NCBI RefSeq assembly: GCF_003334335.1
Contig: NZ_QOWQ01000003.1
Source: Escherichia coli
Lineage (GTDB): Bacteria; Pseudomonadota; Gammaproteobacteria; Enterobacterales; Enterobacteriaceae
DNA length: 64,000 nucleotides
Direction: 5' to 3' (one strand)
Positions 50,996 through 54,363 of the stretch are shown one piece after another. Position 1 is the stretch's first letter. Every line of letters begins with the position of its first letter. The notes under the pieces are model-generated. The model was not told where the DNA came from. It ran no database searches and saw nothing but the letters and a program-made list of their open reading frames with translations. The translations under genes were made by a program, and so were the position numbers.

Positions 50996-52930
50996 ATGAA
51001 TATATTCGATCACTATCGCCAGCGATATGAAGCTGCCAAGGACGAAGAGTTCACACTGCAGGAGTTTCTTACCACTTGTCGGCAAGATCGCAGTGCTTAT
51101 GCCAACGCGGCTGAGCGGCTATTGATGGCTATCGGTGAGCCTGTCATGGTCGATACAGCCCAGGAACCCAGACTTTCTCGACTCTTTTCTAACCGGGTCA
51201 TTGCACGTTATCCGGCGTTTGAAGAGTTTTACGGCATGGAAGACGCGATTGAACAGATTGTCTCTTATCTGAAACACGCGGCTCAGGGGCTGGAAGAGAA
51301 GAAACAAATCCTGTATCTGCTGGGGCCTGTGGGTGGGGGTAAATCATCGCTTGCTGAGCGACTGAAATCATTAATGCAGCTCGTACCGATTTATGTATTG
51401 AGCGCGAACGGTGAGCGTAGCCCGGTCAACGATCATCCGTTCTGTCTTTTCAATCCGCAGGAAGATGCGCAGATTCTGGAAAAAGAGTATGGCATTCCTC
51501 GCCGTTATCTCGGCACCATCATGTCGCCGTGGGCGGCAAAACGCCTGCATGAATTTGGTGGCGATATCACTAAGTTCCGGGTAGTGAAGGTCTGGCCGTC
51601 AATTCTGCAACAAATTGCTATCGCCAAAACGGAACCCGGCGATGAGAACAACCAGGACATCTCCGCGCTGGTTGGGAAAGTCGATATTCGTAAACTCGAA
51701 CACTACGCGCAGAATGACCCGGACGCCTACGGCTATTCCGGTGCGCTGTGCCGCGCCAATCAGGGGATCATGGAATTCGTTGAGATGTTTAAAGCACCGA
51801 TTAAAGTGCTGCATCCCTTGTTAACCGCCACTCAGGAAGGTAACTACAACGGGACGGAAGGTATCTCCGCCCTGCCGTTCAACGGGATTATTCTCGCACA
51901 CTCGAACGAGTCCGAATGGGTCACTTTCCGTAATAACAAAAACAACGAAGCCTTCCTCGATCGTGTTTACATCGTGAAGGTGCCGTATTGCTTGCGCATT
52001 TCCGAAGAGATCAAAATCTACGAGAAATTGCTTAATCACAGTGAATTGACTCACGCCCCATGCGCCCCTGGCACGCTCGAAACACTGTCACGTTTTTCCA
52101 TTCTTTCGCGCCTGAAAGAGCCAGAAAACTCCAGCATTTATTCAAAGATGCGGGTTTATGATGGCGAAAGTCTGAAAGACACCGATCCCAAAGCCAAGTC
52201 GTATCAGGAATATCGTGACTACGCCGGTGTCGATGAAGGGATGAACGGTCTGTCGACGCGTTTTGCGTTTAAGATCCTCTCCCGCGTGTTCAACTTCGAT
52301 CATGTAGAAGTGGCAGCAAACCCGGTCCATCTGTTCTACGTCCTGGAACAGCAGATTGAGCGCGAGCAGTTCCCACAAGAGCAGGCAGAACGCTATCTGG
52401 AGTTCCTGAAAGGTTATCTGATCCCGAAATATGCCGAGTTTATCGGCAAAGAGATCCAGACGGCCTACCTTGAATCCTATTCCGAATATGGGCAAAACAT
52501 TTTCGACCGTTATGTTACCTACGCGGATTTCTGGATTCAGGATCAGGAGTATCGCGATCCGGATACCGGGCAGCTGTTTGACCGCGAGTCTCTTAACGCC
52601 GAGCTGGAGAAAATCGAGAAACCGGCGGGGATCAGTAATCCAAAAGATTTCCGCAACGAGATTGTTAACTTCGTACTGCGCGCCAGAGCGAATAACAGCG
52701 GACGCAATCCGAACTGGACCAGCTATGAAAAACTGCGCACGGTCATCGAGAAGAAAATGTTCTCCAATACCGAGGAGCTGTTGCCGGTTATCTCGTTTAA
52801 CGCCAAAACGTCAACCGACGAGCAGAAGAAACACGACGACTTTGTCGACCGTATGATGGAAAAAGGCTACACCCGTAAACAGGTGCGTTTACTGTGCGAA
52901 TGGTATTTGCGCGTACGTAAATCGTCTTAA
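50996..52930 (+). CDS. yeaG: PrkA-family serine protein kinase
   Basis: 644-aa ORF with Walker A GPVGGGKSSLAERL; recognised as YeaG. Confidence 0.9.
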   Translation: MNIFDHYRQRYEAAKDEEFTLQEFLTTCRQDRSAYANAAERLLMAIGEPVMVDTAQEPRLSRLFSNRVIARYPAFEEFYGMEDAIEQIVSYLKHAAQGLEEKKQILYLLGPVGGGKSSLAERLKSLMQLVPIYVLSANGERSPVNDHPFCLFNPQEDAQILEKEYGIPRRYLGTIMSPWAAKRLHEFGGDITKFRVVKVWPSILQQIAIAKTEPGDENNQDISALVGKVDIRKLEHYAQNDPDAYGYSGALCRANQGIMEFVEMFKAPIKVLHPLLTATQEGNYNGTEGISALPFNGIILAHSNESEWVTFRNNKNNEAFLDRVYIVKVPYCLRISEEIKIYEKLLNHSELTHAPCAPGTLETLSRFSILSRLKEPENSSIYSKMRVYDGESLKDTDPKAKSYQEYRDYAGVDEGMNGLSTRFAFKILSRVFNFDHVEVAANPVHLFYVLEQQIEREQFPQEQAERYLEFLKGYLIPKYAEFIGKEIQTAYLESYSEYGQNIFDRYVTYADFWIQDQEYRDPDTGQLFDRESLNAELEKIEKPAGISNPKDFRNEIVNFVLRARANNSGRNPNWTSYEKLRTVIEKKMFSNTEELLPVISFNAKTSTDEQKKHDDFVDRMMEKGYTRKQVRLLCEWYLRVRKSS

Positions 52931-53042
52931 CAACCCTGGCCCGGTACACATGTTACCGGGCCTACAACGACAGCGAACCGTGGGCCTGAGAAGCGGCAAC
53001 ACAGGCGTAGCATACAGTTGGCAAATGTAGTACGGGGGGCAT

Positions 53043-54326
53043 ATGACCTGGTTTATTGACCGGCGTCTGAACGGCAAAAACAAAAGCATGGTGAATCGCC
53101 AGCGTTTTTTACGCCGTTATAAAGCGCAAATTAAACAGTCGATCTCCGAGGCCATTAATAAGCGTTCGGTGACTGACGTCGACAGCGGCGAATCCGTATC
53201 CATTCCCACGGAAGATATTAGCGAACCGATGTTTCATCAGGGGCGTGGCGGTCTGCGCCACCGCGTGCATCCGGGCAATGACCATTTCGTCCAGAACGAC
53301 CGAATTGAACGTCCCCAGGGTGGCGGCGGAGGTTCCGGCAGTGGTCAGGGCCAGGCCAGCCAGGATGGTGAAGGTCAGGATGAATTTGTCTTTCAGATTT
53401 CGAAAGATGAGTATCTTGATCTGCTCTTTGAAGATTTGGCCTTACCGAATCTGAAACAAAACCAACAACGCCAGCTGACCGAATATAAAACGCATCGGGC
53501 GGGTTATACCGCTAACGGCGTTCCGGCCAATATCAGCGTTGTGCGTTCATTGCAGAACTCACTGGCGCGACGCACAGCCATGACGGCAGGCAAGCGGCGG
53601 GAACTTCATGCACTGGAAGAGAATTTGGCCATCATCAGCAACAGTGAACCTGCGCAACTGCTGGAAGAGGAACGTCTGCGCAAAGAAATTGCAGAATTAC
53701 GTGCCAAAATTGAACGCGTCCCTTTTATTGACACCTTCGATTTACGTTACAAGAACTACGAGAAGCGGCCCGATCCCTCCAGCCAGGCAGTGATGTTTTG
53801 CCTGATGGACGTTTCCGGTTCAATGGATCAATCCACTAAAGATATGGCTAAGCGTTTTTATATTCTGCTGTATCTGTTCCTCAGCAGAACGTATAAGAAC
53901 GTGGAAGTCGTATACATCCGCCATCATACCCAGGCGAAAGAAGTCGATGAACATGAGTTTTTCTACTCGCAGGAAACAGGCGGCACCATTGTTTCCAGCG
54001 CCCTGAAACTGATGGATGAGGTAGTGAAAGAGCGTTATAACCCGGCACAGTGGAATATTTACGCTGCACAAGCATCGGACGGCGATAACTGGGCCGATGA
54101 CTCTCCGCTTTGCCATGAAATCCTGGCGAAAAAATTATTACCTGTTGTTCGTTATTACAGCTATATCGAAATTACCCGTCGTGCACATCAGACATTGTGG
54201 CGAGAATATGAGCATCTGCAATCTACTTTCGACAACTTTTCGATGCAGCACATCCGCGACCAGGATGATATTTATCCGGTGTTCCGTGAACTGTTTCATA
54301 AACAAAATGCAACAGCTAAAGGCTAA
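53043..54326 (+). CDS. yeaH: DUF444 (YeaH/YhbH-family) protein
   Basis: 427-aa ORF with glycine-rich [11 protein letters not shown] stretch; partner of yeaG. Confidence 0.88.
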
Positions 54327-54330
54327 AACT

Positions 54331-54363
54331 ATCAGCCAGGTCATTATCGCCTGGCTGATTTTT
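54331..54363 (+). terminator. rho-independent terminator of yeaGH
   Basis: ATCAGCCAGG-tcattatcg-CCTGGCTGAT hairpin followed by TTTTT, 5 bp after the yeaH stop. Confidence 0.8.

Follow-up and report, generated by a model that had tools for sequence, protein, structure and literature searches.

The yeaG-yeaH operon of Escherichia coli: a AAA+ ATPase gene followed by a gene for a predicted vWA-MIDAS protein

[quoted passage not shown] Few bacterial genes of unknown mechanism are as conserved and as strongly induced by stress as these two genes and ycgB, which encodes the SpoVR homologue of E. coli, and their loss alters both how cells survive nitrogen starvation and how long they lag before regrowth. 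The published biochemistry of PrkA/YeaG is contradictory (i.e., kinase, protease, or neither). We analyzed the pair in a 64,000-nucleotide stretch of E. coli DNA (contig NZ_QOWQ01000003.1), referred to here as the window. The answer bears on how the system should be approached, in that a hunt for kinase substrates by phosphoproteomics will keep yielding indirect answers if the machine is a AAA+/vWA remodeller.

Locus identity and gene layout

As an object, the locus is already known: E. coli K-12 carries it as a core operon with full annotation, and it is ordinary as the outcome of a genome scan. Over the stretch carrying the two genes, identity to E. coli K-12 MG1655 is 100%, and the annotation there reads yeaG / yeaH; the pair was found in all complete E. 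coli genomes (5,426/5,426). The description of yeaG-yeaH in the initial annotation was upheld in each detail, with the features where it had placed them (Table 1). NCBIfam equivalog models matched both proteins from end to end (NF011999 on YeaG, 1342 bits versus a cutoff of 576, covering residues 1 to 644 of 644; NF003708 on YeaH, 842 bits versus a cutoff of 466). Thus, neither gene contains a frameshift, and the pair is intact, as had been claimed. The first of these matches also places YeaG in the PrkA family. Regarding the earlier interpretation, the gene identities and layout stood, while the reading of YeaG as a "kinase" was the weak part. A 75-aa open reading frame (50772-50999) overlapping the promoter and the 5' untranslated region (5'UTR) has no annotation in MG1655 and was taken as spurious.

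Table 1. Positions of features at the yeaG-yeaH locus in the window
Feature	Position	Strand	Remarks
Sigma-54-type promoter element TGGCATGAGAGTTGCT (-24 GG / -12 GC)	50877..50892	+	Motif match
yeaG 5'UTR	50903..50995	+	PMC10954441 coordinates placed on the sequence
yeaG ribosome-binding site GGA	about 50984	+	Within the 5'UTR
yeaG CDS	50996..52930	+	644-aa ORF; PrkA-family AAA+ ATPase
Spacer stem-loop GGCCCGGUA..UACCGGGCC	52938-52962	+	GC-rich, right after the yeaG stop codon, without a U-tract
Conserved block AGTTGGCAAATGTAGTACGGGGGGCAT	53016..53042	+	Abuts the yeaH ATG; includes a Shine-Dalgarno-like G run
yeaH CDS	53043..54326	+	427-aa ORF; DUF444
YeaH disordered Gly-rich linker	53310-53378 (aa ~90-112)	+	AF2 model
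YeaH C-terminal vWA domain (predicted)	53736-54317 (aa ~232-425)	+	AF2 model and Foldseek
YeaH MIDAS motif D256-V-S258-G-S260 (predicted)	53808-53822	+	Completed by T315 and D346
Intrinsic operon terminator	54331..54364	+	Terminator scan: 11-bp stem (6 G-C pairs), 7-nt loop, TTTTT

YeaG and the kinase and protease readings

Pfam assigned aa 19 to 380 of YeaG (nt 51050-52135) to AAA_PrkA (PF08298; E = 2e-187) and aa 382 to 636 (nt 52139-52903) to PF06798 (E = 1.7e-70), the latter being the long C-terminal PrkA region noted earlier. The Walker A motif, GPVGGGKSSLAERL, was likewise found at aa 110 to 123 (from nt 51323), with its core GPVGGGKS at aa 110 to 117 (nt 51323-51346). The AF2 model of YeaG (pLDDT 80) comprises a AAA+ core and an all-helical C-terminal domain, and its fold matches were all AAA+ ATPases, including Lon. 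The protein has the P-loop alpha/beta core, the Walker A, the acidic Walker B, the sensor-1 polar residue, and the arginine finger that mark this class. Residues K116, E263, K266, H302, N304, D322, and R323 are invariant in the family, and E260 is present in 48 of 49 sequences; an insertion at aa 214 to 255, modeled with low AF2 confidence, is also invariant.

Thermus PrkA, deposited as "Serine protein kinase" (9xip, 9xiq, and 9xir; 30 chains in three PDB entries), is a full-length YeaG homologue at 26 to 27% identity. The family profile matches over positions 1 to 640 (E = 3.8e-279), and both proteins share the positions of Walker A, E263, N304, and R323. We found no open paper on these structures. 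For the Bacillus homologues, ATP hydrolysis (B. subtilis PrkA; PMC9512850) and oligomers with ATP (B. anthracis PrkA; PMC13001217) have been reported, and neither Bacillus PrkA nor YeaG can dispense with its AAA+ Walker A residue (PMC9512850, PMC4664914).

The reported catalytic activities differ between the two groups, i.e., kinase for E. coli YeaG and protease or none for Bacillus PrkA. YeaG may be a genuine Ser/Thr kinase whose C-terminal domain phosphorylates AceA-like metabolic enzymes in starvation or carbon shifts, with YeaH and YcgB as regulators or substrates. Papers citing Tagourti 2008 attribute to that study YeaG autophosphorylation and casein phosphorylation in vitro; AceA phosphorylation was detected with an anti-phospho-Thr antibody and required malate (PMC8055822); and the kinase name is used by RefSeq, NCBIfam, and the PDB depositors. 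In addition, YeaG K426A fails to complement (PMC4664914), indicating that the C-terminal domain, in which this residue lies, matters. However, the name and the reported in vitro phosphotransfer are all that YeaG has in common with Hanks-type Ser/Thr kinases. None of the tested Hanks-type patterns (GxGxxG loop, VAIK Lys, HRD, DFG, and APE) occurs anywhere in YeaG, neither a bilobal protein-kinase fold nor a kinase profile match was found for it, and K426, the proposed catalytic residue, is replaced by D in 20 of the 49 family members. We consider a kinase function of this kind unlikely and the "kinase" label of YeaG doubtful.

In our judgment, YeaG is very unlikely to be an ATP-dependent protease of the Lon type and to break down regulatory or metabolic proteins itself, the activity put forward for B. 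subtilis PrkA. Casein degradation by the latter was ATP dependent, PMSF sensitive, and lost in a Walker A mutant (PMC9512850), but the digestion needed 24 h, and rigorously purified B. anthracis PrkA showed no protease activity, the residual activity being that of a contaminating E. coli amidohydrolase (PMC13001217). Besides the fold match, Lon gave weak sequence matches to YeaG (E = 0.0005 to 0.03) that were confined to the P-loop region (aa 74 to 129). This likeness spans only the AAA+ module that the two proteins have in common: the N-terminal domain of Lon and its protease domain with the Ser-Lys dyad were not detected in YeaG (no Lon_C match in Pfam), and the C-terminal domain of YeaG is all helical. 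A PADLOC search gave no defense-system match (IetA alone appeared, at E = 0.007 over the P-loop), and a role as an anti-phage system was rejected on this outcome.

The predicted vWA domain of YeaH and a proposed third partner

YeaH is commonly portrayed as having no resemblance to anything. It is a DUF444 protein, as first annotated (PF04285; E = 1.2e-190 over aa 4 to 421), with a Gly-rich stretch at aa ~90 to 105 that is predicted to be disordered. The N-terminal part is helical and carries an invariant D6-R7-R8, and long helices occupy aa 166 to 224. PDB sequence searches with YeaH, both as a single sequence and as a profile, returned no match; the vWA domain came to light through fold comparison only. 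In the AF2 model (pLDDT 86 overall, mostly 93 to 98 over aa 250 to 420), the top 50 Foldseek matches were vWA/MIDAS-type domains (E = 1e-6 to 2e-4; probability, 1.00; 180 to 230 columns), including CMG2, the Rea1/MDN1 MIDAS domain, NorD in NorQD, and TFIIH p44. Across 105 sequences of 37 to 58% identity, residues D256, S258, S260, T315, and D346 never vary. The homologue set came from a 50%-representative search; the initial search gave only relatives of at least 86% identity, which were unsuited to modeling. The model and the alignment identify YeaH as a vWA protein whose predicted MIDAS metal site is complete. We found no paper tying DUF444 to vWA in the context of yeaG-yeaH.

The two genes are tightly linked, yeaG being the immediate upstream neighbor of yeaH in all 79 loci with room, and the adjacency recurs in a jumbo phage and in metagenomic contigs that extend far enough. 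Outside the Enterobacterales, spoVR directly follows the pair in 51 of 53 loci; it is also downstream in diverse metagenomic contigs, and a jumbo phage carries the whole PrkA-DUF444-SpoVR trio. The 64-kb window contains no SpoVR homologue, in the operon or elsewhere. The homologue of E. coli, ycgB, is at an unlinked locus, and 5423 of 5426 E. coli genomes carry it. Given that spoVR is contiguous elsewhere and ycgB is unlinked here, the trio in E. coli is complete but split. Cofitness of yeaG, yeaH, and ycgB (spoVR) has been observed in six bacteria (10.1101/072470), and yeaG, yeaH, and double mutants have one common phenotype (PMC4664914). Linkage, cofitness, and this common phenotype suggest that yeaG-yeaH and a SpoVR-family gene constitute a functional unit.

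The initial annotation had drawn a parallel with the sporulation-linked PrkA/YhbH pair of Bacillus. This parallel holds for the two Pfam families and their order (in B. subtilis and B. anthracis, prkA is flanked by yhbH, and SpoVR is part of the system), and both pairs are induced on entering dormancy or starvation. It does not extend to the subfamily: the spore_yhbH model gives YeaH 238 bits, below the equivalog cutoff of 468, so YeaH belongs to a different subfamily from YhbH. Furthermore, E. coli is nonsporulating, and its SpoVR homologue is unlinked.

The combination of a AAA+ ATPase with a vWA-MIDAS protein can be likened to NorQ-NorD, CbbQ-CbbO, RavA-ViaA, BchI-BchD, and Rea1, and the ATPase and vWA genes of the present pair are adjacent. 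The likening to NorQD, CbbQO, and RavA-ViaA is an analogy only because YeaG is outside the MoxR clade by Pfam (AAA_5, E = 0.11 over 27 residues; no AAA_3 match); YeaG-YeaH is an analogue of the MoxR-type AAA+/vWA systems and not a member. The ATPases of the systems likened to it lack the 280-aa helical C-terminal domain of YeaG and its conserved 40-aa insertion, and, unlike the AAA+/vWA two-gene machines, the YeaG-YeaH system has an obligatory third partner, SpoVR. We know of no metal-cofactor enzyme target for YeaG-YeaH, in contrast to those machines.

Our preferred reading, to which we assign a probability of roughly 0.55, is that yeaG-yeaH is the intact K-12 operon and that a single starvation-induced module for protein remodelling combines a AAA+ motor with a vWA-MIDAS adaptor and a member of the SpoVR family. 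Gene identity, domain folds, MIDAS conservation, gene linkage, and promoter conservation (see below) are its directly supported elements. By analogy and from the gene linkage, we infer that YeaG would form an ATP-driven ring and that the MIDAS site of YeaH would hold a target protein, or YeaG itself, as an adaptor. Together with the unlinked YcgB, the two would remodel specific proteins, inactivate them, or pass them to degradation at the onset of starvation, instead of phosphorylating them, and such remodelling would yield the published "metabolic brake" phenotype. The motor-adaptor reading leaves the function of the YeaG C-terminal domain unexplained.

A related possibility shifts catalysis to YcgB, with YeaG as an unfoldase or adaptor-dependent motor and with YeaG and YeaH merely delivering or activating their SpoVR-family partner. 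It fits the strict linkage of the trio across Gammaproteobacteria, metagenomic contigs, and a jumbo phage, as well as the cofitness of the three genes (10.1101/072470), and the conservation of SpoVR (70 to 92% identity across Gammaproteobacteria) is similar to that of YeaG-type proteins. However, SpoVR has no sequence relative in the PDB, Pfam returned nothing informative past its own family (CotH, E = 0.044, was not significant), and no catalytic motif was identified in it. We regard this assignment of catalysis as quite improbable; it overlaps with the motor-adaptor reading and does not exclude it. A broader form of the motor-adaptor reading is tentative, and we would not yet bet on it: YeaG-YeaH-YcgB may be an ancient, separate AAA+ / vWA-MIDAS / SpoVR remodelling machine, extending from Thermus to E. 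coli and jumbo phages, that switches metabolic quiescence via specific targets and is not a kinase pathway, the kinase and protease activities being side reactions or contaminants.

Transcription signals and the intergenic spacer

Under the motor-adaptor reading, transcription would run from an NtrC-activated sigma-54 promoter, through a nonterminating spacer hairpin, to the intrinsic terminator. The candidate promoter element has one mismatch to TGGCAC-N5-TTGCW and implies a transcription start at ~50903, about 93 nt 5' of the yeaG ATG. Sigma-54-like sites occur across the window at chance level (45 observed versus 45.6 expected), and it is solely the positional conservation in other genera that makes the yeaG site credible. 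Fifteen Enterobacterales loci have a perfectly kept TGGCAY-N5-TTGCT 81 to 113 nt upstream of yeaG, and in the 16th (Brenneria) it lies 226 nt upstream; it was not found upstream of yeaG in the Vibrio and Alteromonadales loci compared. Published NtrC/sigma-54 dependence of yeaG and a published 5'UTR boundary at -93 fit the predicted site (PMC4664914, PMC10954441), and an RpoS-dependent promoter is also described in the literature. No NtrC box (TGCACC-N5-GGTGCA, up to 3 mismatches) was found in the yeaG upstream region, the total in the window being at chance level. A pairing site for the small RNA SdsR has been reported in the yeaG 5'UTR at -31 to -22 (PMC10954441), which corresponds to a putative site at about 50965-50974. 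For neither the 5'UTR nor the spacer hairpin did Rfam (50400-54700, E ≤ 1) return a known RNA family.

The spacer between the genes (52931..53042) is exactly 112 nt, and the hairpin within it is stable (-18 kcal/mol; z = -3.8; 0 of 200 shuffles equally stable), both in agreement with the initial annotation; the folding of the entire spacer is unexceptional (z = -1.0). A strong hairpin of other sequence occupies the same place in most other Enterobacterales with spacers longer than about 60 nt. Many non-Enterobacterales have spacers of 13 to 60 nt and no hairpin. The spacer hairpin is unlikely to be a terminator: it has no U-tract, the terminator scan passed over the site, and the coregulation of YeaG and YeaH in published proteomics (PMC10954441) counts against termination there. 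It is probably an mRNA 3'-end/stability element inside the operon or a partial attenuator setting the YeaG:YeaH ratio. The block next to yeaH is near-identical in Escherichia, Citrobacter, Leclercia, Superficieibacter, and Enterobacter, whereas the remaining spacer diverges. Downstream of yeaH, the terminator was as strong as had been described, with a stem-loop (54331-54359) followed by TTTTT (-19 kcal/mol; z = -5.7); none of 200 shuffles reached this stability.

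The yeaG-yeaH operon

Positions 50600 to 54700 of the window matched E. coli K-12 MG1655 at 100% identity; in that genome, the two genes are annotated as "protein kinase YeaG" and "YeaH/YhbH family protein." This match bore out the gene names proposed in the initial annotation. Pfam and NCBIfam models covered both proteins end to end; thus, neither gene is frameshifted, and the pair is intact as claimed. The Walker A motif, the long PrkA C-terminal region, the 112-nt spacer with its hairpin, and the strong terminator were likewise recovered, with the spacer length being exact. 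Upstream of the pair lies mipA, on the opposite strand, and its downstream neighbors are cdgI and dgcJ. Every one of the 5,426 complete E. coli genomes of the collection had the stretch (at least 80% of it in 5,425).

Features of the yeaG-yeaH region (nucleotide positions refer to the window)
Feature	Position	Strand	Details
Sigma-54-type element TGGCATGAGAGTTGCT	50877-50892		Upstream of yeaG
yeaG ORF	50996..52930	+	644 aa
AAA_PrkA domain	YeaG aa 19-380		Pfam
Walker A peptide GPVGGGKSSLAERL	YeaG aa 110-123
"PrkA serine protein kinase C-terminal domain"	YeaG aa 382-636		Pfam
Spacer stem-loop GGCCCGGUA/UACCGGGCC	52938-52962		-18 kcal/mol alone, z = -3.8
yeaH ORF	53043..54326	+	427 aa
Terminator	54331-54364		11-bp stem and T-run, z = -5.7

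As a core operon of the best-studied bacterium, yeaG-yeaH is fully annotated, and the locus is thus already known. The window holds nothing unusual at yeaG-yeaH, and the question of mechanism is real and testable. Computation adds to the known locus a non-kinase C-terminal domain in YeaG, a predicted MIDAS-bearing vWA protein in YeaH, a conserved sigma-54 promoter, and a split gene trio.

Domains of YeaG and YeaH

The published biochemistry of YeaG/PrkA is contradictory. Autophosphorylation and casein phosphorylation are reported for E. coli YeaG (Tagourti 2008, as cited in later papers), and malate-requiring phosphorylation of AceA has also been reported (PMC8055822). The B. subtilis PrkA had no kinase activity and degraded casein very slowly in an ATP-dependent manner (PMC9512850), while rigorously purified B. 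anthracis PrkA showed neither kinase nor protease activity, with the earlier protease signal attributed to a contaminant (PMC13001217). The initial annotation was right to describe the role as unresolved. Its kinase framing and its remark that substrates were not known need qualification. The Hanks patterns tested (GxGxxG, VAIK-like, HRD, DFG, and APE) had no match anywhere in YeaG, kinase Pfam families were absent even at an E value of ≤10, and a search of all PDB sequences with the YeaG family profile (E value of ≤1) yielded no kinase; its only matches were to the Thermus homolog 9xip and, along the P-loop, to Lon and RavA. The position of K426, regarded in the literature as the catalytic lysine, is occupied by aspartate in the Thermus clade. 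The C-terminal domain of YeaG is not kinase-like. The Hanks kinase assignment was rejected on the motif, Pfam, and PDB results, and a kinase role, despite the reported phosphorylations, is unlikely. The Lon protease assignment also failed, as similarity to Lon was limited to aa 74 to 129 and no Lon protease domain was found in YeaG; a Lon-like protease, to which the casein degradation would point, is very unlikely. On the basis of the domain, motif, and profile evidence, YeaG belongs firmly to the PrkA family and the AAA+ superfamily, and it does not qualify as a Hanks kinase or a Lon protease.

The YeaG structure model (mean pLDDT, 80) was built from an alignment of 49 family members with identities from 99% down to 26% (lowest in a Thermus/Chloroflexi/Planctomycetes clade). 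It contained an alpha/beta P-loop core and consisted of helices only at aa 360 to 644. An insertion (aa 214 to 255) was poorly modeled, yet sequence-invariant (P214, D216, N219, Q220, D221, G227, D241, G249, and N255). Its position and the pore loop assigned in the B. anthracis PrkA homolog (PMC13001217) suggest a pore-loop-like region. Among homologous loci L002 to L089, YeaG identity was 80 to 99% across Gammaproteobacteria, and contigs with YeaH at only 39 to 45% identity still encoded YeaG at 65 to 73%. YeaG is far more conserved than YeaH, which is unusual for a supposed signaling kinase.

For YeaH, 105 sequences (37 to 58% identity) were aligned from among 3,383 relatives in a 50%-identity representative library. 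Residues D256, S258, S260, T315, and D346 were invariant and correspond to the DxSxS...T...D MIDAS signature, a metal site predicted from sequence. The model (mean pLDDT, 86) comprised N-terminal helices, a disordered linker (i.e., the Gly-rich stretch noted initially), two long helices (aa 166 to 224), and an alpha/beta domain (aa 236 to 425). The top 50 Foldseek matches were all vWA/MIDAS-type domains, including CMG2, integrin I-domains, the Rea1/MDN1 MIDAS, TFIIH p44/Ssl1, and NorD in NorQD; sequence searches of the PDB with YeaH gave no match. DUF444 presumably belongs to Pfam's vWA-like clan. The predicted fold and the residue invariance mark YeaH as a vWA protein with a MIDAS site. In the literature collection searched, no paper tied YeaH to vWA, and the view that it resembles no known protein (PMC4664914) is too pessimistic because of the MIDAS residues and the vWA fold matches.

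Linkage to SpoVR and a proposed remodeling module

Wherever a genome locus extended far enough (79 of 79), yeaG immediately preceded yeaH. Of 53 Gammaproteobacteria outside Enterobacterales, 51 had a SpoVR-family gene after yeaH, at a distance of no more than a few tens of bases. Seven metagenomic contigs were found via distant YeaH representatives; five had the full PrkA-DUF444-SpoVR order, one had DUF444-SpoVR at the contig end, and one was too short to tell. The SpoVR gene is relocated away from yeaG-yeaH in Enterobacterales: the window contained no SpoVR homolog, and ycgB, encoding the E. coli homolog, occurred at a different locus in 5,423 of the 5,426 genomes of that species. The pair makes up two of the three genes of a trio whose members are separated in E. 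coli. Matching this linkage, cofitness of yeaG, yeaH, and ycgB was reported in six bacteria (10.1101/072470), and yeaG, yeaH, and double mutants had identical phenotypes (PMC4664914). In Brenneria roseae (L026, 9048 to 10529) and Pantoea sp. Nvir (L027, 11933 to 13258), spoVR/ycgB lay 1.8 and 4.7 kb downstream of yeaH, respectively; the two arrangements resemble steps midway through the break-up that the three-gene operon shows in E. coli.

Regarding mechanism, the sequences support a putative AAA+ motor encoded beside a vWA-MIDAS protein. NorQ-NorD, CbbQ-CbbO, RavA-ViaA, BchI-BchD, and Rea1 share this arrangement, and in these systems the MIDAS domain tethers the target to the ATPase for remodeling, although YeaG falls outside the MoxR clade. 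By analogy with these systems, we favor a model, supported by the fold and gene linkage, in which YeaG, YeaH, and YcgB would form a starvation-induced remodeling or turnover module. Its action would slow metabolism, as in the "metabolic brake" described previously (PMC10954441). That YcgB is the catalytic component of the linked trio is distinctly unlikely. The helical C-terminal domain of YeaG is essential, and the remodeling model gives no account of its role.

The trio also occurs in Ralstonia phage RsoM2USA (L090, MG752970.1; 1485 to 6301), a 344-kb jumbo phage in which all three genes are annotated "hypothetical" (59% identity to YeaG, 40% to YeaH, and 54% to Vibrio SpoVR). It was found on metagenomic contigs L083 (2892 to 7735) and L084/L085 (3051 to 8662) with phage-like neighbors (DNA polymerase A, PDDEXK nuclease, SNF2 helicase, and Phage_phiTE_241_C). 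On the phage-like contig L084, the DUF444 and SpoVR genes are separated by a 308-aa ORF (6276 to 7202) without a Pfam match, which could add a component to the module or stand in for one of its parts. Three uncultured megaphages (634 to 642 kb) encoded full-length YeaH homologs, and a fourth (595 kb) had a partial match. A 30.8-kb record deposited as Enterobacter phage LAU1 (MN688132.1) contains a yeaH (2025 to 3299) whose product shares 93% identity with E. coli YeaH. Rather than belonging to a phage, this gene looks as if it came from host chromosomal DNA included in the record or from a transducing particle.

Promoter and intergenic spacer

The sigma-54-type match is not significant alone, since the window held as many such matches as shuffled sequence. 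In 15 Enterobacterales loci (including Escherichia, Citrobacter, Serratia, Pantoea, Erwinia, Pectobacterium, and Dickeya), the element TGGCAY-N5-TTGCT was perfectly kept 81 to 113 nt ahead of the yeaG start, and a 16th, Brenneria, had it 226 nt ahead; it was absent upstream of yeaG from every Vibrio, Shewanella, and Alteromonadales locus compared. The case for the promoter lies in this conserved position across Enterobacterales. The implied transcription start (~50903) equals the -93 5' UTR boundary taken in the SdsR study (PMC10954441), and the predicted element agrees with reported NtrC/sigma-54 and RpoS control (PMC4664914, PMC10954441). A consensus search found no NtrC boxes upstream of yeaG. 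Three more one-mismatch sigma-54-like sites occur in the window (16143 to 16158, minus; 50526 to 50541, minus, within mipA; and 55828 to 55843, plus). A 75-aa ATG-started ORF (50772 to 50999, plus) overlaps the promoter and yeaG 5' UTR and ends in the yeaG start-codon region; it is probably no real gene, and MG1655 carries no annotation for it.

The fold of the whole spacer was unremarkable (z = -1.0), and the spacer had no Rfam match. Its hairpin lacks a U-tract and was not called by the terminator scan. Enterobacterales spacers ranged from 36 to 202 nt and differed in sequence; most of those longer than ~60 nt start with a strong, GC-rich hairpin, unrelated in sequence (some REP-like), and many finish with a conserved block (AGTTGGCAAATGCAGTACGGGGGGCAT) adjoining the yeaH ATG. 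Non-Enterobacterales spacers were often just 13 to 60 nt and without a hairpin. We infer that the hairpin is a putative lineage-specific element for mRNA stability, processing, or partial attenuation, and it could raise YeaG abundance above that of YeaH. A 27-nt block directly 5' of the yeaH start (53016 to 53042; AGTTGGCAAATGTAGTACGGGGGGCAT) was near-invariant in several Enterobacteriaceae genera, among which the remainder of the spacer was unalignable. The block exceeds the needs of a ribosome-binding site and may therefore serve as a site for regulatory RNA or for the control of translation. Repetitive extragenic palindromes also appear to land in the spacer, since the spacers of Leclercia, Pseudocitrobacter, and another Enterobacteriaceae strain (L006, L007, and L012) carry REP-like palindromes (…GTAGGCCGGATAA…CATCCGGCA…) besides the first hairpin.
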